64,000 bases of DNA from an uncultured Gammaproteobacteria bacterium (GTDB lineage Bacteria > Patescibacteriota > Microgenomatia > Levybacterales > UBA12049): NCBI GenBank assembly GCA_964416505.1, contig CAYQEJ010000006.1, positions 13,827 to 77,826 on the forward strand, given 5' to 3'. This document shows, in pieces, positions 33,415-42,186 of this stretch; positions within the stretch are counted from its first letter, which is position 1; each line of letters starts with the position of its first letter. Both the position numbers and the translations under genes were made by a program. Below the pieces are notes generated by a model. The model was not told the origin of the DNA. It did no database searches and was given only the letters and a program-made list of their open reading frames with translations.

Positions 33415-33846
33415 CTAGAATCCAATTTTCTCAACAATTAAATATACAAAAAAATTATTATACAAATAATGCATAAATATTGCGATGATAACACTCACAA
33501 TTAACCAATAGACTCCCCTCTTACCCAATAAATAAATGAAGACAATATTTGAAGTATGAATTAAAGTTGTAAAAATCAATCTAACAAAAAACAATTTCAT
33601 GTTTCCTAATGCTAATATATTGGTTAAGTATAGAAATGATTCAGAAAGAGAAAATAAGATACCTGATAAAATAACTAGATTAATCAGCTTCCTTTTTATT
33701 TTTTCTTCTTCTTTAAGTATAAAAATAACAATTAACGCTGAAAAAAATTCTTCAATTACTGATGGAAAAGGAATAATCCATTCCAAAACCATTATTGGTA
33801 ATGGGCCAAAAAAGGAAAGAAGAGGAAGTATGTATAGCGCATTCAT
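33415..33846 (-). CDS. small polytopic membrane protein, possibly CPBP/PrsW-like
   Basis: Four to five TM helices. Glu pair (VIEEFFSAL) and a HxxxN-like HYLYNN resemble CPBP motifs only weakly. Confidence 0.35.
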   Translation of the reverse strand: MNALYILPLLSFFGPLPIMVLEWIIPFPSVIEEFFSALIVIFILKEEEKIKRKLINLVILSGILFSLSESFLYLTNILALGNMKLFFVRLIFTTLIHTSNIVFIYLLGKRGVYWLIVSVIIAIFMHYLYNNFFVYLIVEKIGF

Positions 33847-36800
33847 TAGTTAGAAATTATATACTGATCATTAACCCACCCTTTTATCAGTTTATCGTCA
33901 GTTTCTATTTCAACCTGAACCCATCCTGGTGATTCGTTTATTTTTTTTGCTTTCAAATTAGCGGTAATACTTTTTAAGATTTTCGTTGAGGTAGAAGGTC
34001 CGGATCTTAAATTTACTGCACTTGGCGTTGCAATAATTTCAATATTTTGGATTTCGGATTTTACTCCTAAAACAGACTTCGAATCTTCAATGTTTACTTC
34101 ATCATCTTCTCCTCTAGTTTTTTTATTTTCTTTTGTTTCAATAGTTTTTTCTCGGGGTAAATCATTTCGTAATTCATGAGTAATTTTCTTAGAAATAAAA
34201 AATACAAAAATTATTGAAATTAAAACTAAGATTATTAAAAACATGATTATTAATATTTTTTTTGTAACTCTCTTATCTAATTCATCAATCAAATCAGCAA
34301 GAGGCTGAAAATAATTTTTATAAAATTTCTTAGAGTCATTGTCTTTTCTACCATGTCCCGCTAAGGCTCTCATATAAAACGCCATAAAAACAAAACCAGC
34401 AAGTAGAATAATTACTATTCCCCACACAGCAAATGTTTGAACACCACCCACAAATCCGAATAATGAATTTGCTGAACTAGCTGAAGTAGCTAGCGTCTTA
34501 AGATCATCTATCTCAGCTTTAGCCTTATCTACCTGAGTCTTAGCATCACGGTATGCTTTTATTCTCTGCTCTGGAGTATTAGCTTCTTTCTGAATTCTAC
34601 TAGCTGAATCCAAAGAAGCTATCACATCTGCATAAAGAGTCGCTCCTTGACCAAAATAAGTTGTCCCCTTTAGTGGCCCATAAATTTCTTTTGCTTGAAT
34701 TCTTAGTGAATCTATTTCCTCGTCAGAAATTTTCCAAATATCTTCTACTTCAACTGAATAAATTTTTGTTTGATTAGGAGACAAAACTACCTGACCGCTT
34801 GCATAATAAGCGTCTTCTGAAGCATCATACTCAATTGTCAAATCATCATCTTTTTTTATCACATCTTTATCTGTAGCTTCTTTAGGAAGATAAAACTTAA
34901 CCGGAACAGTTTGCCTTATTGAAGTTGGGTTTGTAATTAAAGTTTTAAATATAATACTTCCTTCTTCAAGCCAAGTCTGAATAATAGGGGACTTCGTACC
35001 ATTTTCTAAAAGCGTCTTATTTGCTTGTGTTAATGCCTGAAGAGCTAAAACGCTATTTTTTAAACTCTGCAGATCTGAAGCATTTGCTTTCGAAAGCGTA
35101 AGAATATCTGAAACTCCCGAAATTGAATTTGAAGATGAGACATCAGAGGAAATTGAATTGACAGCATCTATAATATCAGATGCTGTATAGCTATCCCATT
35201 TTGCCAAAACATCTGAAAGACCTGCTCCTGAGGTATCGAGATCTTGGATTGTTTCTTTATTTAATTTAAGTCTTCCATACAAAGTCGCATCTGAAGAAGT
35301 ATCAGAACTAGTACCGATCTTGGTTTGCATAGATGATATTTCTGAAATTATCGATTGCAAATCCTGATATGCTGTTGTCGATTTCCCATTATAGTTTAAT
35401 TCGCTTCTCAAACTATTTAGATTTGCCTCTGTTGTAATAGCTGAATTATAAATATCATCTGCAGTTCTTGATCCCCATTTTCCTTTTATACAATTAACCT
35501 GTCCAAAGATCGTAGAATCCAAACATGTATCGGCTGAGTCACCTAGCGAAGCGACATCCAGATTGTTGATTGCAGTCATTAAATCAGAGATTGTATAAGA
35601 ACCCCACTTAGCAAGAATCGAATCAGCTTTGGAGTCTATAGAATCCACAGTAGTATTTACAGAATCCACAGTTGTACCTATCGCATCAACGCTTGATTGA
35701 ACTCCAGCTACATCAGTAGAGACCTGAGACAAACTTTTGTTATCCGGACCCTTAATTGAGGTTGTACTCGATGAAATATCCTCTCGGGTGGCTTGTATTT
35801 TACCAAACACCGTAGAAGCCGCAGAATTATCGCCAGAAGAACCTATATTTGTATTTAGAGTTTGTGCATATGTCTTTATTGCTTGAATATCCTGATATGC
35901 AGTTGAAGATTTTCCACCATAATCCAATTCACTTCGCAGAGAAGCAGAATACGTTGCAGCATTATTTGCAGCAGCATAAAGAGTATCCGCAGTTTGACTA
36001 CCCCACTTATCTCTAATACACTTTATCCCTCCGAAAACAGTACTTGTTACACAACTATCTGCGCTCGTTCCTAGACTAGACTCCAAATCATCTACATATC
36101 CTATAACATCAGACATTGAATAAGATCCCCATTTACTTAAGATGTCAGTAGTATCCGAAAAAATAGAATCGATATTCGTATCAAGAGTATCAACTTTTGC
36201 TTCAATTGAATTTAAAGAATTTTGCGCGGTAACTAGTCCAGAATTAATCTGGGTAAGATCTTTATTCCCGGAACCTTTTATAGAGGTTGTAGCTGAAGAT
36301 GTAGCATTATTTACATCTGTTTTCGTTGCCAAACTTTCCCCGTTATCTAGACTTGCTCCTGTTAGAGTTCTTGTTGCTGAGCTCCAAATATCCGTAACCA
36401 ATGTCCCAAATGTAGTTAACGATCTCGCTGAATAACTCCAGATATCAGAAATTAATGTGCCGAATGAACTTAAAGTTCTAGATGGATAATTCCAAATATC
36501 AGCTACAGCAGGAATACTATTTTGAAGCTTTTCTCCAAAAGAACCATTATTTGTATGCGCGCTCGCTGTAGCATCCCACACCTGATCAGGAATATTTTCT
36601 TCAATAGTAAAAGTTTTATCGAGCCTTAACGTTTGACCATTTGTAGTGCAAGTAATTTGACTTCTATAAGTTCCCAAAGTCATACCTGAAGTATTAAAAG
36701 CATAGTAATACCATCCATCATTTTGGGCAGCCGAGGTCATAGATTGAGAATTTAAGAATAAGGAACCATCGGGGTATCTTGCGGTTAATGTACAAGTAGC

Positions 36801-36977
36801 ATCTATTATGGGGTCATAACTATCATCATAAAGATATTCCCCTATTGAACAACTAGAGCCTTCCGTGCATTTTTGATAGCCTGCAGTTGCGGCATAAACA
36901 ACATTTTTTGAAATAAATACAGAAAAACAGATAAAAACTATTAAAAATACAGTTTTTATCTTAATATGAGACAGCAT
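33846..36977 (-). CDS. large (1043 aa) tandem-repeat surface protein with C-terminal TM pair and SH3b domain
   Basis: Signal peptide, N-terminal beta-rich domain, about 2.3 copies of a ~170-aa Ser/Thr-rich repeat each with a Cys pair (ADSCVTSTVFGGIKCIRDKWGS / ADTCLDSTIFGQVNCIKGKWGS). Two TM helices, then a bacterial SH3-like domain (PSAVNLRSGPSTSTKILKSI...GWVQVEIE...KGWVNDQYI). Confidence 0.75.
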   Translation of the reverse strand: MLSHIKIKTVFLIVFICFSVFISKNVVYAATAGYQKCTEGSSCSIGEYLYDDSYDPIIDATCTLTARYPDGSLFLNSQSMTSAAQNDGWYYYAFNTSGMTLGTYRSQITCTTNGQTLRLDKTFTIEENIPDQVWDATASAHTNNGSFGEKLQNSIPAVADIWNYPSRTLSSFGTLISDIWSYSARSLTTFGTLVTDIWSSATRTLTGASLDNGESLATKTDVNNATSSATTSIKGSGNKDLTQINSGLVTAQNSLNSIEAKVDTLDTNIDSIFSDTTDILSKWGSYSMSDVIGYVDDLESSLGTSADSCVTSTVFGGIKCIRDKWGSQTADTLYAAANNAATYSASLRSELDYGGKSSTAYQDIQAIKTYAQTLNTNIGSSGDNSAASTVFGKIQATREDISSSTTSIKGPDNKSLSQVSTDVAGVQSSVDAIGTTVDSVNTTVDSIDSKADSILAKWGSYTISDLMTAINNLDVASLGDSADTCLDSTIFGQVNCIKGKWGSRTADDIYNSAITTEANLNSLRSELNYNGKSTTAYQDLQSIISEISSMQTKIGTSSDTSSDATLYGRLKLNKETIQDLDTSGAGLSDVLAKWDSYTASDIIDAVNSISSDVSSSNSISGVSDILTLSKANASDLQSLKNSVLALQALTQANKTLLENGTKSPIIQTWLEEGSIIFKTLITNPTSIRQTVPVKFYLPKEATDKDVIKKDDDLTIEYDASEDAYYASGQVVLSPNQTKIYSVEVEDIWKISDEEIDSLRIQAKEIYGPLKGTTYFGQGATLYADVIASLDSASRIQKEANTPEQRIKAYRDAKTQVDKAKAEIDDLKTLATSASSANSLFGFVGGVQTFAVWGIVIILLAGFVFMAFYMRALAGHGRKDNDSKKFYKNYFQPLADLIDELDKRVTKKILIIMFLIILVLISIIFVFFISKKITHELRNDLPREKTIETKENKKTRGEDDEVNIEDSKSVLGVKSEIQNIEIIATPSAVNLRSGPSTSTKILKSITANLKAKKINESPGWVQVEIETDDKLIKGWVNDQYIISN
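35180..36320 (-). repeat. diverged in-frame tandem coding repeats (~510 nt unit) within the 1043-aa surface protein gene
   Basis: The protein-level repeats map to roughly these coordinates. Nucleotide identity looks only moderate by eye. Repeat boundaries are approximate. Confidence 0.45.
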
Positions 36978-37153
36978 TATTTATTTTTACTTTCTTTTTT
37001 ACCTCCTTCGCTTTCTCCTCTAAAAGCCCCTAAAACTTCCTTCACAGCTTCAGATAAACCCTTAGCGAATTCTGGTAATTTTTTAGGACCAAATATTATT
37101 AAAAGAACAACAGCGATGATAATTATTTCTGTTTTACCTATTCCATCAAACAT
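36977..37153 (-). CDS. tatA: twin-arginine translocase subunit TatA/E (58 aa, below the ORF-track size cutoff)
   Basis: Manual translation gives MFDGIGKTEIIIIAVVLLIIFGPKKLPEFAKGLSEAVKEVLGAFRGESEGGKKESKNK. The FGPKKLPE hinge motif is typical of TatA. Its stop overlaps the ATG of the downstream surface-protein gene (TAATG). Confidence 0.7.
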   Translation of the reverse strand: MFDGIGKTEIIIIAVVLLIIFGPKKLPEFAKGLSEAVKEVLGAFRGESEGGKKESKNK

Positions 37154-37179
37154 GATTAAACACCTCCCTTCGAGAGCAA

Positions 37180-37899
37180 TTAACGTCTATTTAATAGTAG
37201 ACCAAATTCAAACAAAAAGAAAAGTGGCAAACTAAGCAAAATTAACGAAACAATATCTGTTGGTGGAAGCAAAACAGCAACAATTAGGAGTAAAAAATAA
37301 ATATACTTACGTCTTCTAATAAGCTCATTTCTTTTTATTATATTAAGTCTTATTAAAGCTGAGATTACAACTGGGATCTGGAAAATTAATCCTGTTAAGA
37401 AAGACGTGAATATTATTTGAGCAAAGAAGTTTTGAATATCCCAAAAACTATTAACTCTAACATCTTTCCATACTACTGAGTAAAAATTTATTATTAGCTG
37501 CATTACCCATATTCCAAAAGAGAAACCTAAAACAAAAAGCACAACAGAAAGAGGAGCAAATGTTAAAAGTAATTTAGCTTCATTTGGCTTAAGTGCTGGC
37601 CTAAAAAATACAAAGAAACGAAAAAAAGCCAAAGGCGCAGCAACAATAATTCCACAAAAAATACTTATAGTAAAACTAAGGCTAATATATTGATAAGGAG
37701 AGGTAGTAACAATACTTACCCCTTTGAAAGTATAAAGATTCAAAATAAAACTAAATATTTTCTGACTATTAAAAAACCCCAACACTGCTCCTACTAAAAA
37801 AATTAATCCCACAAAAATAAAACTTTTTCTAAGTTCGAATAGGTATGGCTTATACTTTAAATATAATTCGGAAAGCTGCTGTGATTGATCATCCATCAA
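37180..37899 (-). CDS. tatC: twin-arginine translocase subunit TatC
   Basis: Six predicted TM helices in a TatC-like arrangement (LRKSFIFVGLIFLVGAVLGFF...). 239 aa, upstream of tatA. Confidence 0.8.
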   Translation of the reverse strand: MMDDQSQQLSELYLKYKPYLFELRKSFIFVGLIFLVGAVLGFFNSQKIFSFILNLYTFKGVSIVTTSPYQYISLSFTISIFCGIIVAAPLAFFRFFVFFRPALKPNEAKLLLTFAPLSVVLFVLGFSFGIWVMQLIINFYSVVWKDVRVNSFWDIQNFFAQIIFTSFLTGLIFQIPVVISALIRLNIIKRNELIRRRKYIYFLLLIVAVLLPPTDIVSLILLSLPLFFLFEFGLLLNRR

Positions 37900-37957: not shown

Positions 37958-38374
37958 ATGGGCGCCAAATTTGATCCAATTTTAGGAAAACTCAGAACAG
38001 AAGACTTAGGAATAACTGAAGGAAGTTTCGGAATAACAATTGATGGCGGAGGAAACGTAATCTCAACAGGCGTAAAGGGATACGTTACTATTCCATACAA
38101 CTGCACTATTACGGGATGGGATATATTTGCTGATCAAGTAGGATCCTGCGTAATTGATCTTTGGAAAGATACTTATGCAAATTTTTCTCCCAACATTTCT
38201 GATTCTATTACTGGTTCTGAAAAACCTACTTTAACCTCAGCGCAAAAAAATCAGGATAATTCACTATCTACCTGGACAACATCTATTAGCGCAGGGGACA
38301 TAATTGCATTTAATGTAGATAGTGCTACAACAGTAACTCGGGTAAATGTTATTATTAAAGTGAATAAAATTTGA
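37958..38374 (+). CDS. hypothetical protein (138 aa), first gene of a GC-rich cassette
   Basis: No signal peptide. Gly/Thr/Ser-rich, beta-type composition (GSFGITIDGGGNVISTGVKGYVTIPYNCTITGWDIF). Its stop overlaps the next start (ATGA at 38371). Confidence 0.5.
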   Translation: MGAKFDPILGKLRTEDLGITEGSFGITIDGGGNVISTGVKGYVTIPYNCTITGWDIFADQVGSCVIDLWKDTYANFSPNISDSITGSEKPTLTSAQKNQDNSLSTWTTSISAGDIIAFNVDSATTVTRVNVIIKVNKI

Positions 38375-40548
38375 ACATGGCAAAACTAGCAGTAAATATT
38401 AATTATGGAAGTTTATCTACCTATGTTTTTCCGGGTGGATATGACTCATCAAAACTAGGCTTAGGACCCTTAATGACCCAGAAAAATGCAGGCGGAGAAG
38501 GTAGCTATGCAGGTCCTTATCCAATCGCCCTGGCAAGACCTATGGAACAAAGCACTACAATTCCTGGAGTTTATCCCTGGGCAATGCAATGGTCTACTAC
38601 GATTGACTGGGTATTCCTGGCCGATAACGCCGCAGCAGCAGCAACTAGAAGAATTATACTTTATACATACAATCGCTCAACAAATGCTTTTTCATGGCAA
38701 GGATTTATAACTGTTGGATTCCCATTCGGAGGAACCCAAGGCACATACACAATAACTGGAATGAGAATGACATATGACACATACTCAACTGGAACTGCAA
38801 GTGCCTCAGGTACTGCCGTTACTGGTTCAACTACAGCTTGGCAAGCGGCCAGAATATCTGCTGGAGCGAGAATAGGGTTTGGTTCAACTGATCCAACCCA
38901 AATAACAACATGGTATGAAATATCAGCTATCGGCAGTGACACAGGTATTACACTTAGCACTTCTGCAGGAACAGTTAATTCCGGTTCGTATGTTATAGAA
39001 GAGCTGAGAGCCGTAATTCTTACAAAAAACGGTACCACTGCTACAAATGGAGGATTATTTATAGTTAAAGGGCTAAATTTTTCAACATTTAATACTGCTG
39101 GATCACCAACTATCGCAGCTGCTACCACAACCGATAATATACGAGCAACCTTTTGGGTTAAAGATGCAGCAACTTCTACAAACACAAACGGTACCGGGCT
39201 TGCTATTCAGACGAAAGACTCAAATACTCAACATTATGTCTGGGTACTACAAGGAACTACCACCATGCAGCTCTATAAATTTAATTTAAGGGCAGCATTA
39301 ACGCTCACCTCTGGTGCGGATACGGCTAATTCTTGGCAATTTTCCACTGGAGTTTCTGCGACGCTAACAGGAACTGCATCACAGGCCAATAATGGCAGAC
39401 TTGCTAACATGTCTTCCGGACCCGGTTCTGGCTTAAACTGCATCTACTTTACAACGACTACTAGAATATATCGATCTATTGATGTCTCAACGATTACCAC
39501 CGGAGTCACAAATTTTCTCGCAGATAATTCCGCTGAAATTCCGCCAGGAAGCGCAAGCTCCACTGCTGCAACATCTCTACTTAACAGCATCGAATATGCA
39601 ACATCATTGGATAAAATGATAGTTATGACTACAGGTGCTGCAGGTGTTAGGTCATATGTTACTCAATACAGAACTGATTCTGGACAATGGGATAGATTAT
39701 TCCTAATTGATAATAAACAAATTGATCAATCTTTAGCTGATTCTACGCTTACTCCTTTTCCTGCAATTCTAGCAAGAGCTTTTTCAGTTTGGTCAGAAGG
39801 CGGAGTAGCATATCTAGCAGGTATCGGCACAACTGCAGCAACTAATCTGCTATACGCTATCCCATTGGGGGCAGATTGGGAATACACTTCCACAACTAAT
39901 TGCAGATTGGTAACACCTGCTTTTAGCACACCAAACGTTAGCTCGTATGATAAAGTTTATACTAATTCCATAACAATTCTTGGTGGAGCAACTGGACAAG
40001 TTCTAGGTTTACCCCTTGAAGCTTTCGAAACTCATTATCGAACGACAGGCATATCTGACAATTCTGGAAGCTGGACCACGCTTGATGATACTGGCGACTT
40101 ATCCAGTATTCCACCAGCTACCGAAATCCAATTCGCATATGACTTCAGAACAATAGGAACGACTTGTATTCCTGCAAGACTTCTTAGCACTACTGTTACC
40201 TACAATGACCTTTCAACTGATTCGCATTTTCAGCCATCAGTAACAAACTCATCCGCAGCATCAAAAATATTTGCCTGGAGATTTTCAACAGAATTCGGCG
40301 GGACAGTTCCTGCGCTACGTATTCGTCTCTACAATGCCGTAACCAATGGAATTTTATTAGACGACAATACAACCGATCACTCTGAGGGAACATGGGAACA
40401 ATCAACTGATGGTGGATCAAATTGGACATCCTACACTACCGTGGGCAGTCCATTATCAGACAAGTCAAACGAAACAACATATATTCGCTATACTCCCACT
40501 TCTATTGCAGATAACATAAAAGTAAGGGCACTACTTACTCAAAATTAA
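38371..40548 (+). CDS. large Thr/Ser/Gly/Ala-rich hypothetical protein (725 aa), fibre/structural-like, no signal peptide
   Basis: About 45% GC versus about 25-30% in the flanks. Low-complexity, beta-rich composition with very few Cys and no TM helix. Resembles phage tail-fibre or surface-fibre proteins in composition only. Confidence 0.6.
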   Translation: MNMAKLAVNINYGSLSTYVFPGGYDSSKLGLGPLMTQKNAGGEGSYAGPYPIALARPMEQSTTIPGVYPWAMQWSTTIDWVFLADNAAAAATRRIILYTYNRSTNAFSWQGFITVGFPFGGTQGTYTITGMRMTYDTYSTGTASASGTAVTGSTTAWQAARISAGARIGFGSTDPTQITTWYEISAIGSDTGITLSTSAGTVNSGSYVIEELRAVILTKNGTTATNGGLFIVKGLNFSTFNTAGSPTIAAATTTDNIRATFWVKDAATSTNTNGTGLAIQTKDSNTQHYVWVLQGTTTMQLYKFNLRAALTLTSGADTANSWQFSTGVSATLTGTASQANNGRLANMSSGPGSGLNCIYFTTTTRIYRSIDVSTITTGVTNFLADNSAEIPPGSASSTAATSLLNSIEYATSLDKMIVMTTGAAGVRSYVTQYRTDSGQWDRLFLIDNKQIDQSLADSTLTPFPAILARAFSVWSEGGVAYLAGIGTTAATNLLYAIPLGADWEYTSTTNCRLVTPAFSTPNVSSYDKVYTNSITILGGATGQVLGLPLEAFETHYRTTGISDNSGSWTTLDDTGDLSSIPPATEIQFAYDFRTIGTTCIPARLLSTTVTYNDLSTDSHFQPSVTNSSAASKIFAWRFSTEFGGTVPALRIRLYNAVTNGILLDDNTTDHSEGTWEQSTDGGSNWTSYTTVGSPLSDKSNETTYIRYTPTSIADNIKVRALLTQN

Positions 40549-40549
40549 T

Positions 40550-40735
40550 ATGGCACTTACTGACATTTTATTTCCAGATGGAGACTCGCAAAACTTCATT
40601 CAGACAATGAACCGAGGAAATATTGGAACTATTAATGATTATCTTACAGAAGCTGATTCGAATTCAGGAATACTCGTTGGAGAATGGACATCAACTACTA
40701 CTGCCGAAACCACTGCTTATACTTGGGTCAGTTAA
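40550..40735 (+). CDS. small hypothetical protein (61 aa), third gene of the cassette
   Basis: Starts 2 nt after the 725-aa gene. Thr-rich tail (EWTSTTTAETTAYTWVS). Confidence 0.35.
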   Translation: MALTDILFPDGDSQNFIQTMNRGNIGTINDYLTEADSNSGILVGEWTSTTTAETTAYTWVS

Positions 40736-41566
40736 CTAAAAAGTTGAGCTAAAACTTGCATAACTTTCCGATGCACGATTACTCCAATCATATCCACTTG
40801 CCCCTTTTGCATATAAAAACGATCCATCCCCAACCTCTTTAACCATATACCAAGCCCCATCTTTATTTACAAACCCATAATAAAAAGGTGCAGATGCGGT
40901 ATCAGTATTTGCGATTGCATATCCATCAGTAGGAGATTTTATAGCTGGATCTATCAAATCTCCATTTGAATCCTTAACCCCTACTATTCCAGGACCAGGG
41001 ACACTTCCGAAAAATGCAGCTCCTGCTTTTTGTGGATTTATAAGCATAGTTACAAATACGCCCAATCCAGCACCTGCTAATAATTTAAAGAAATGTCTTT
41101 TATCAATTTCCTTAATTCCTCCATATCTCTGAAGCACTAATACATCATCTGTTTTAAAATCAAAAATGTTTTCCTCAAATGAGTAAATTTTATTATTTTT
41201 ATTTATTTTTTTAAATTTAATTCTCTTAAATATTGCGCTAAGCTGATGAAGCTCTAGTGGAAAAAGAATCACAGTAAAAAATATCTCCCTAAACTCCTTT
41301 ATATTCATAATTGATGAGATAAAAAGTAAATTTACAAATATAAAGCTATAGACTGCTAGAAAAATAGAGATTTTATTTTTATGATTTTCTAAAAAACCTG
41401 GAAATCTTTTAAAAACAGACTCATAAAAATAAAATATAACCGGAATAAGACTAAATACAAAAACACTTGAAGTTAAATTTTCTGAATTTTTAAACCCGAA
41501 AAAAAACAATGAAAATACAAGAATAAGGTTATATATTAAAATGAGTTTTAAAATAATTTTCTTCAT
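40736..41566 (-). CDS. membrane protein with C-terminal extracellular domain
   Basis: Four to five N-terminal TM helices, then a soluble Gly/Tyr/Asp-rich domain (FFGSVPGPGIVGVKDSNGDLIDPAIKSPTDGYAIANTDTASAPFYYGF). Start overlaps the upstream gene stop (ATGA). Confidence 0.5.
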   Translation of the reverse strand: MKKIILKLILIYNLILVFSLFFFGFKNSENLTSSVFVFSLIPVIFYFYESVFKRFPGFLENHKNKISIFLAVYSFIFVNLLFISSIMNIKEFREIFFTVILFPLELHQLSAIFKRIKFKKINKNNKIYSFEENIFDFKTDDVLVLQRYGGIKEIDKRHFFKLLAGAGLGVFVTMLINPQKAGAAFFGSVPGPGIVGVKDSNGDLIDPAIKSPTDGYAIANTDTASAPFYYGFVNKDGAWYMVKEVGDGSFLYAKGASGYDWSNRASESYASFSSTF

Positions 41567-42186
41567 TTTATTGATCTAGTATTTTTTTCATTTATCCAAC
41601 CCCAATCTGAATCCACAGAAACCTTATACCAGCCTGAAGAGTATTGATAATATTCCAATATTTCCCCCACATTTTTTTTGCCGACAATTTGAGAAATAGT
41701 AGTAGCATCTTTATAAATGTCTATGCTTTTTCTAGATGGATCATAAACTTCAATCTTTCCTTTTGAAGTCAAAATGCCTGTAGGATTTGGGCTAATCAAT
41801 TGATTGTTAGTTACGTTCTCACTATTTTGATTTACATCAGAACTTTTCGAAGAATAAGTCGATACACCAAGTGTCGAATAATCTGGATTTTCGGAAGTAA
41901 TAATATTATCTACTCTGGAATTAAGTCTTCTTATATTTTCCCTATCTCTTTCTGCCATTTTTTTCGCCTGAACCCCAGACTCTCGAAGCACAGAAAGCTC
42001 CATTTCATGTCTTATTTTTTCCTCCTGAAGAGAATTTATTTTTAGAAAACTCGTTGTAAGAATAAAAACCAAGAAGATAACTATAATTAAAAAGGCCCCC
42101 AATTTCTTTTTGTCATTAGTTAAATTTTGGAATGAGAAATCTATTTTTTTCCACGTCATTAAATTGGGCAAATTAAAGTCCGACAT
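41563..42186 (-). CDS. membrane-anchored coiled-coil protein with C-terminal SH3b domain
   Basis: N-terminal TM (LGAFLIIVIFLVFILTTSFL), a coiled-coil segment and a C-terminal SH3-like domain (KDATTISQIVGKKNVGEILEYYQYSSGWYKVSVDSDWGWINE). Confidence 0.55.
   Translation of the reverse strand: MSDFNLPNLMTWKKIDFSFQNLTNDKKKLGAFLIIVIFLVFILTTSFLKINSLQEEKIRHEMELSVLRESGVQAKKMAERDRENIRRLNSRVDNIITSENPDYSTLGVSTYSSKSSDVNQNSENVTNNQLISPNPTGILTSKGKIEVYDPSRKSIDIYKDATTISQIVGKKNVGEILEYYQYSSGWYKVSVDSDWGWINEKNTRSIK

Follow-up and report, generated by a model that had tools for sequence, protein, structure and literature searches.

Nearest described systems

The Bacillus subtilis locus phoD-tatAd-tatCd, in which the gene of a substrate lies beside a dedicated minimal TatAC translocase (PMC3827258), is the nearest precedent for a Tat (twin-arginine translocation) gene cluster that was found in a stretch of 64,000 nucleotides (the window) from an uncultured, ultra-small bacterium of the Levybacterales, Microgenomatia (assembly GCA_964416505.1, contig CAYQEJ010000006.1, positions 13,827 to 77,826). 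Four minus-strand genes of this cluster lie head to tail: tatC, tatA, the gene of a putative 1043-aa surface fibre protein here called BIG, and a gene for a 143-aa protein resembling the intramembrane protease PrsW. As in the Bacillus system, TatA and TatC are present without TatB in a single-membrane cell, and the gene of an exported protein adjoins them. Unlike PhoD, which has a twin-arginine (RR) signal, BIG has a Sec-type signal without RR, and the module adds an intramembrane protease, up to eight tatA copies and signal-less partner genes.

Tat "hitchhiker" co-export is represented in Escherichia coli by HybO/HybC of hydrogenase-2 and by DmsA/DmsB. The cluster is comparable in that only one of its protein families, that of a 276-aa membrane protein encoded nearby, has an RR signal, several others being signal-less and either sharing a motif with the extracellular fibre or resembling virion structural proteins. 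Unlike the E. coli hitchhikers, they have no redox cofactors, and complex formation and export are putative here. PrsW (family M82) is the site-1 protease of the anti-sigma factor RsiW. The 143-aa protein has EExxK, a conserved E, an H and HxxxN in common with it, whereas this protein and its relatives, of about 130-143 aa, are half the size of PrsW, and no anti-sigma or sigma factor is encoded nearby. Proteases are paired with sorting signals in the exosortase/PEP-CTERM and rhombosortase/GlyGly-CTERM systems, and here too a protease gene lies beside the gene of a protein with a conserved transmembrane (TM) motif, a hydrophobic helix and basic residues. Unlike exosortase-type targets, BIG does not have this motif, helix and basic stretch (residues 841-873) at its extreme C-terminus, since a second TM helix (TM2) and a bacterial SH3 (SH3b) domain follow in all BIG members examined, and cleavage is putative.

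The C-terminal SH3b domain beside a membrane anchor recalls lysostaphin-type SH3b domains and the TIGR04211 "SH3_and_anchor"/YgiM proteins, but BIG scores 20.8 against TIGR04211, far under the cutoff of 65, and its SH3b domain would stand at the base of an 810-residue fibre and not on an enzyme. Distant relatives of BIG have a C-terminal dockerin in place of the TM hairpin and SH3b, with a cohesin gene next to them, as in cellulosome-type display; unlike the latter, no glycoside hydrolases are involved, and BIG of the window itself lacks the dockerin arrangement. Polytopic membrane proteins targeted by both Sec and Tat are known from the actinobacterial Rieske protein Sco2149 and its type (PMC5449189, PMC3471235). 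This likeness does not extend to BIG, in which no RR precedes TM2. It belongs to the 276-aa neighbour, which has N-terminal TM helices, an RRxFLK-type motif inside the chain, ahead of the last hydrophobic helix, and a globular domain at the C-terminus; the 95-aa C-terminal domain of the neighbour differs from the Sco2149 type in having no known cofactor motif or Pfam family.

Bacteria of the candidate phyla radiation (CPR) make up a large share of bacterial diversity and live attached to or dependent on other cells. To our knowledge, they are without the respiratory enzymes with cofactors that Tat classically exports. A survey has recorded Tat (TatA plus TatC) in Microgenomatia (PMC9166423). 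No description of the present Tat-fibre-protease linkage was found in the searchable literature; all of its parts come from known families, and their combination and its conservation are new. The module would offer a concrete answer to the question of why many CPR bacteria keep Tat, often with three to eight tatA copies: Tat is genomically tied to a family of large fibres of the cell surface, which comprises hundreds of clusters at 50% identity, as well as to a dedicated mini-protease, with the RR-bearing 276-aa family as a candidate cargo set and the other cluster proteins as candidate partners.

The gene cluster and its conservation

The genes tatC (37180-37899) and tatA (36977-37153), each the only one of its kind in the window, are separated by a spacer of 26 nt (37154-37179) that holds a GGGAGG ribosome-binding site, and are followed by the BIG gene (33846-36977) and the PrsW-like gene (33415-33846), all on the minus strand. 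An earlier note, made from the sequence of this DNA, had placed tatA directly downstream of tatC, had pointed out that it was missing from the list of open reading frames (ORFs), and had read a shared nucleotide between its stop codon and the ATG of BIG. Each of these observations proved correct: the 58-aa product has the FGPKKLPE hinge and matches Pfam TatA_B_E (PF02416) with a score of 48.4 bits where the cutoff is 21 (E=5.6e-13), the match running over positions 1-52 of a model of 53, its absence from the list is due to a threshold of 60 aa, and the junction reads TAATG with one base in common (AAATAATGCTG). A second TAATG overlap joins the stop codon of BIG to the ATG of the 143-aa ORF (AACTAATGAAT). 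The 1-nt overlap leaves no room for a promoter or terminator between tatA and BIG, and a terminator scan returned three sites where 3.5 +/- 1.8 were expected, which is the chance level; none was found at a gene boundary except a weak 5-bp hairpin overlapping the tatA ribosome-binding site. The 61 nt at 37140-37200 (minus strand), in which the spacer between tatC and tatA and the beginning of tatA lie, have a folding energy of -15.1 kcal/mol (z=-3.4), a value matched by one of 200 shuffled sequences, and the fold pairs the Shine-Dalgarno/AUG region of tatA. This hairpin is not a terminator because it has no U-run; it may reflect translational control or chance. The window was also scanned for Rfam families and tRNA genes, with no match.

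The TatC protein matches the Pfam TatC profile over its full length (E=3e-40, 138.7 bits, positions 3-208 of 208) and has the six-helix core, its residues 17-236 aligning with residues 9-231 of the Aquifex aeolicus TatC structure 4HTS; its TIGR00945 score is 118, under the cutoff of 132.7. The protein retains the residues that correspond to E15, F94 and E103 of E. coli TatC (yLFELRks and FFrPALkpnE align there), and has Y and K at the positions of H12 and Y100. In a 2026 structure of TatBC with a signal peptide, E15, F94 and E103 touch the consensus Phe and both arginines (PMC13323110). The TTG listed as the start of tatC (239 aa) is directly followed by an in-frame ATG at 37896 (238 aa, TTGATGGATGAT), which is the likelier start because the orthologue at a related locus, L001, has 238 aa. 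TatA, which begins MFDGIGKTEIIIIAVVLLIIFGPKKLPEFAKGLSEAVKEV, has the N-terminal TM helix, FGxKK(L)PE hinge and amphipathic helix of its family; it falls under the NCBIfam subfamily cutoffs (48 against 62 for NF011430, the best, and 44.8 against 53.9 for TIGR01411) and is thus a TatA/TatE family member that is not assignable to a subtype (TatA, TatB or TatE). A TatA subtype specific to BIG was considered and rejected, the consensus sequences of tatA copies sorted by position being nearly identical. Likewise rejected was a degenerate Tat system blind to RR, since the RR-binding residues of TatC are kept and a family with textbook RR signals exists. The TatAC system is probably canonical and RR-recognising.

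Hidden Markov models of TatA, TatC and the 143-aa protein, built from the window and the first related loci, were used to scan 82 non-redundant loci; upstream sequence was available for 75 loci, each from a different GTDB species, and at least 3.5 kb on both flanks for 48. At 59 of the 75 loci (79%) the direct upstream neighbour of BIG, in the same orientation, is a tatA gene, mostly with gaps of 3-8 nt and several times with an overlap, and tatC takes this place at five further loci. At the 48 fully flanked loci, tatC is present in 42 and a homologue of the 143-aa protease in 47. With about four tatA in a genome of roughly 1000 genes, the chance of tatA being the direct upstream neighbour is below 1%. 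The gene order is tatC-tatA-BIG-prsW in a Dojkabacteria-like group and WWE3, tatA(n)-tatC-BIG-prsW in Shapirobacteria, and in most other Microgenomatia tatA-BIG converging with prsW-tatA-tatC-tatA-tatA. Because the adjacency of tatA and BIG outlasts rearrangement and duplication, it points to selection rather than inherited order. The linkage, which is found again in about 80 related species, is a real, previously undescribed envelope gene module and not a chance neighbourhood. As the earlier note had supposed from the sequence, the Tat genes and BIG form a tightly coupled and unusual unit, and this unit is no accident of this genome; the note missed the protease and the wider conserved cluster.

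It is rather unlikely that Tat, BIG and the protease are envelope genes without a direct functional link that stay together in streamlined genomes through inheritance of gene order or through common regulation. The genomes of CPR bacteria are small and syntenic, each component has a plausible independent role, and two loci (L019 and L036) hold BIG and PrsW without a tat gene within 5 kb. Mere inheritance is harder to reconcile with an adjacency that survives several rearrangements and tatA duplications, that is observed at 79% of loci where chance predicts less than 1%, and that persists in distant CPR lineages through a change of anchoring from TM/SH3b to dockerin.

This change is seen in the most distant BIG relatives, which have only the N-terminal ~230 residues (the head and W-repeats) in common with BIG, at about 33% identity, and which have no TM anchor and a C-terminal dockerin. 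At all three dockerin-type loci that could be placed (L085-L087, from Doudnabacteria, Yonathbacteria and a third metagenome-assembled genome), tatC-tatA lies directly upstream, and at none of the three is there a PrsW-like gene within 5 kb. The dockerin-type genes are followed by genes of cohesin-type or related secreted proteins, with a cohesin domain in the next gene of L086, which implies anchoring in trans. Since these loci keep tatC-tatA without PrsW, the Tat linkage tracks the fibre head and PrsW the anchor formed by the first TM helix (TM1), TM2 and SH3b. The association of the protease with the TM anchor supports a putative action of the protease on the TM1 region, and the dockerin-type loci argue against TatA serving the membrane hairpin.

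BIG has 103 homologues in a database clustered at 90% identity, the closest named one being from Candidatus Dojkabacteria (73% identity), and 112 confirmed places among GTDB species genomes, spanning Shapiro-, Woese-, Davies-, Levy-, Roizman-, Gottesman-, Ames-, Beckwith- and Collierbacteria, WWE3 and Dojkabacteria. The clusters (at 50% identity) that match its C-terminal module number 918, with E<=1e-30 for 449. Many records of metagenome-assembled genomes with this CPR-type cluster (L007-L010, L015, L026 and others) are titled "uncultured Gammaproteobacteria" or "Pseudomonadales", which looks like mislabelled taxonomy; L007 and L001 are one contig, and the BIG encoded there shares 71% identity with that of the window. 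Arrays of tatA occur beside a single tatC, typically with three or four copies per locus and up to eight (L018, 9658-10820; L041, L059, L076 and others). Such arrays are unusual for genomes of about 1 Mb.

Architecture of BIG and of the putative mini-protease

BIG begins with a signal of the Sec type (residues 1-30, 36888-36977; this and all other parts of BIG are on the minus strand), which starts with MLSHIKIKTVFLIV, has a KIK n-region and a strongly hydrophobic core, and ends VYA/A. No RR dipeptide occurs anywhere in the window protein, in agreement with the Sec-type signal without twin-arginine described at first. Residues 35-126 (36600-36875) are modelled by AlphaFold, with a predicted local distance difference test (pLDDT) score above 90, as an Ig-like beta-sandwich of the filamin or macroglobulin (MG) type. 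The best PDB matches of this domain, the filamin domain of Lin-41 and the MG domains of C3/alpha-2-macroglobulin (E 3e-4 to 1e-3), are generic for Ig, MG and filamin folds, and no specific function follows from them. Four cysteines of the head (C37, C43, C62 and C110) are nearly invariant across the family. The head is followed, in residues 121-215 (36333-36617), by the motif VWDxxxxxHxxxGSFGxxL (VWDATASAHTNNGSFGEKLQ) and three 18-aa repeats of the form DIWxYxxRxLTxFGTL; no other part is conserved as widely within the family, 100 of the 103 matches having it.

The stalk (residues 227-664, 34986-36299) consists of two full repeats of ~174 aa and one partial repeat. Repeats 227-399 and 402-575 are identical at 80 of 174 positions (46%, z=39.8 against shuffles), the third copy comprises residues 579-664, and cysteine pairs are found at 309/320 and 485/496, so that the initial description of about 2.3 diverged repeats of ~170 aa with Cys pairs holds. 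The repeats show at the protein level: Tandem Repeats Finder (TRF), applied to the DNA as a check on the repeat array, detected only a period-54 repeat at 36382-36502 that encodes the 18-aa DIWxYxxRxLTxFGTL units, the 174-aa repeats being invisible to it because they are too diverged at the DNA level. The ~174-aa unit is present in zero to six copies among 72 family members, 48 of which have a single copy and 18 at least two, and the suggestion that the array is a length-variable spacer is borne out at the level of differences between species. Beyond the stalk, residues 665-839 (34461-34985) are predicted to form a seven-strand beta-sandwich and a three-helix bundle (a conserved module, TWLEEGSIIFKTLITNPS...YLPKE, with invariant residues) with a mean pLDDT of 83.5; a PDB fold search with this module gave no significant or specific match.

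Hydropathy reveals two further hydrophobic helices at about residues 841-874 and 902-934, in accordance with the two TM helices claimed for the protein. TM1 (841-870, 34368-34457) has the family pattern GFVGGxQTxAVWGxxxxxxAGFVFxAxYMR and is separated by a basic, cytoplasmic loop (871-903) from TM2 (904-926, 34200-34268), which a linker of ~60 residues joins to the SH3b domain (986-1040, 33858-34022; SH3_3, PF08239, E=1.1e-8, 35.5 bits against a cutoff of 27). The Pfam SH3 call extends to 53 of the 103 homologues, and the remainder keep a divergent SH3b-like tail. By the positive-inside rule, both the ectodomain of ~810 residues and the SH3b domain are predicted to lie outside the cell. Because the ectodomain is held by TM1 at its own C-terminal end, the Ig-like head is its distal tip, and the SH3b domain, extracellular as well, is predicted to be membrane-proximal. 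The domain by which the protein had been called "SH3b-tipped" is therefore present at the C-terminus but belongs to the base and not to the tip. This topology corrects the one associated with a widespread annotation, "SH3 domain-containing protein", and makes it more likely that SH3b binds the cell's own wall than that of a host.

In TM1, G841 and G844 are invariant across the family, F842, G845, Q847, W852, G853, F862 and Y868 are nearly so, and a conserved polar Gln lies near the outer end; such conservation appears far in excess of what a passive anchor needs. This property, together with the succession of TM helix, basic loop, TM helix and globular C-terminal domain that resembles proteins targeted by both Sec and Tat (PMC5449189), might suggest that TatA assists the TM hairpin and SH3b of BIG, as their partner in the membrane or in their insertion. 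That role is very unlikely, since a Tat-like RR motif precedes TM2 in none of 106 family members and the dockerin-type relatives, which have neither TM hairpin nor SH3b, keep tatC-tatA directly upstream.

The 143-aa protein of the window has no Pfam match at E<=0.01, but 33 of 41 aligned orthologues match PF13367 (PrsW-protease; best E=3e-9), and NCBI names the orthologues "PrsW family glutamic-type intramembrane protease". E32, E33, E69, R89, T93, H97, H126 and N130 are invariant in the 41 sequences and K36 is nearly invariant, giving a pattern of EExxK, a second-helix Glu, a His and HxxxN/D that we take to be the motifs of the PrsW/CPBP superfamily. The protein thus appears to keep every catalytic-type residue of a PrsW-like protease. 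A profile search with the alignment returned 86 matches, which are confined to this one tight family of proteins, all around 130 aa. From its gene context, the protease probably processes the BIG anchor.

Candidate Tat cargo and the wider cluster

Twin-arginine signals are rare in BIG itself. RR occurs in the N-termini of five of 61 family members and never in a consensus (SRRxFLK) context; before TM2, RR of any kind occurs in ten of 106 members and RR-x-hydrophobic-hydrophobic, the motif before the last TM helix that marks targeting by both Sec and Tat, in none. BIG was accordingly rejected as a canonical Tat cargo. It could still be the dedicated cargo of TatAC through a non-canonical signal without RR, as PhoD is of TatAdCd. 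A cargo gene beside its translocase is known in Bacilli (PMC3827258), BIG retains its own upstream tatA where the main tat operon is elsewhere, which would fit an extra need of TatA per cargo, and the Tat linkage follows the exported N-terminal part of BIG. Such a route is unlikely, however, in view of the Sec-like signals with their strongly hydrophobic cores, the absence of a Tat motif before TM2, and the RR-binding glutamates that TatC retains; the same genomes encode perfect RRxFLK signals, so RR recognition has not been abandoned.

A more promising cargo is a polytopic membrane protein of 276 aa (40736-41566, minus strand) with an internal signal of the twin-arginine type (DKRHFFKLLAGAG...AGA/AFFGS). 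About four N-terminal TM helices are followed by EIDKRHFFKLLAGAGLGVFVTMLINPQKAGA/AFFGS and a C-terminal domain of ~95 residues that contains no known cofactor motif and belongs to no Pfam family. The motif (D/E)(R/K)RxF(L/I/F)K, at a median position of about residue 150, has RR in 95 of 118 homologues and KR in 23. The window copy has KR and was identified as a candidate through its RR-bearing homologues: the search for RR substrates that had been proposed at the outset, run on all ORFs of the window, gave only two unconvincing matches. The protein is laid out like Sec/Tat dual-targeted proteins: TM helices of the Sec type come first, an internal motif of the RR type precedes the last helix, and the C-terminus is globular. 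An AxA site after the helix suggests that the C-terminal domain may be cleaved off. It is likely a genuine Tat cargo, predicted to be of a CPR-specific kind that is either dual-targeted or internally cleaved. Because this twin-arginine-type substrate is encoded 2.8 kb away, BIG would be a partner of Tat cargo rather than the cargo. The 276-aa gene is overlapped by 4 nt by the gene of a 207-aa single-pass membrane protein with an SH3b-like C-terminus (41563-42186, minus strand), and the pair recurs in L001, L025 and L088; the 276-aa orthologue is the first gene of the operon in L085. The gene of the RR protein and its upstream partner are located 22-25 kb from the BIG/Tat cluster in Shapirobacteria and Roizmanbacteria.

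Between tatC and the 276-aa gene, three divergent genes on the plus strand (37958-40735) encode proteins of 138, 725 and 61 aa without signal peptides, and have orthologues in related clusters. In L001 these orthologues adjoin tatC, and NusA, IF-2 and DnaJ flank the cluster; in L085, a co-directional operon with gaps of a few nt comprises the genes of the RR protein, the 725-aa orthologue, a 213-aa protein, the 61-aa orthologue, tatC, tatA and the BIG-like protein, followed by two genes of secreted proteins. The divergent genes are not a local insertion, because their orthologues flank tatC in L001 and are co-directional in L085. The tat operon of Microgenomatia is headed instead by genes of other proteins without signal peptides, namely a protein of ~500 aa, small proteins with coiled coils and a right-handed beta-helix protein of 432 aa (PF13229), as in L013-L017, L021, L026, L030, L040 and about 30 others. 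A motif of ~25 residues, AVWDxxxxxHxxxG(T/S)xGxxL, lies at the very end of the chain in 26 of 41 beta-helix proteins and just after the Ig head in 26 of 88 BIG proteins (residues 134-153 in the window), and is absent from the other ~950 neighbouring genes.

The 138-aa protein has a match (1e-21) in phrog_10330, a family of phage proteins annotated "virion structural protein", and shares 41% identity with a protein of cyanophage S-CAM1. This neighbour, the fibre-like character of the W-x5-R-x-L-T-type repeats and of the beta-helix proteins, and a G+C content of 0.41 across the plus-strand genes where that of the window is about 0.33 could together indicate a prophage remnant or a phage-derived cassette with BIG as a phage fibre. 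Such an origin is extremely improbable and was rejected: a search of 2.9 million viral contigs of IMG/VR yielded no relative of BIG, a comparison of the 725-aa protein with 50,697 phage records gave no match, and the cluster, whose conservation at species level extends across CPR classes, has housekeeping genes at its borders in L001 and holds the only tatA and tatC of the window.

Gene content and gene order lead to a joint reading of the cluster as a Sec-exported, wall-tethered fibre with a co-produced Tat system that exports folded partners and a protease that processes the anchor, a reading that is tentatively preferred and has somewhat less than an even chance of being correct. BIG is probably exported by Sec through a cleavable signal without RR and held in the membrane by the TM1-loop-TM2 hairpin, projecting a stalk of variable length with the Ig-like head at its end, and its membrane-proximal SH3b domain would fasten it to the wall of the same cell. 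Tat made from the same transcript would not export BIG but folded partners that work with the fibre, namely the RR-bearing 276-aa family, and the signal-less phage-like or beta-helix proteins may ride along. The mini PrsW-like protease would act on the conserved TM1 of BIG for its maturation or release, and translational coupling at the TAATG junctions may fix the ratio of TatA to fibre to protease. Several points weigh against this reading, everything in which beyond gene content and order is deduced. The loci L019 and L036 have BIG and PrsW without nearby tat genes; in Microgenomatia the RR-family gene, at 22-25 kb from the BIG/Tat cluster, is loosely linked to BIG; the 725-aa protein of the window has no sequence similarity to the beta-helix or X503 proteins of Microgenomatia, and iterative profile searches connected neither it nor the 138-aa protein to them; and the signal-less cluster proteins may simply be cytoplasmic.

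A bolder extension of the joint reading, improbable on present indications, is that Tat is largely dedicated to the building of surface appendages in Microgenomatia, Dojkabacteria, WWE3 and some CPR lineages of the Paceibacteria type. If this were true, folded signal-less phage-like fibre or beta-helix proteins would leave the cell through an enlarged translocase with multiple TatA, perhaps riding on the RR-bearing protein, and would be mounted on the Sec-exported BIG fibre, which would be anchored either in cis (by the TM hairpin and SH3b, with processing by the mini PrsW) or in trans (by dockerin and cohesin). The assembly of attachment organelles would then be a new role of Tat in organisms without the redox enzymes that Tat normally serves.

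At about 30 Microgenomatia loci (for example L018, L030 and L084), a divergent gene just upstream of tatA-BIG encodes a protein of about 315 aa with a Fic/DOC domain and a DeoR-like helix-turn-helix (HTH), and at 11 other loci (for example L004, L010 and L029) a PIN-HTH pair is found in the place of the Fic/DOC gene.

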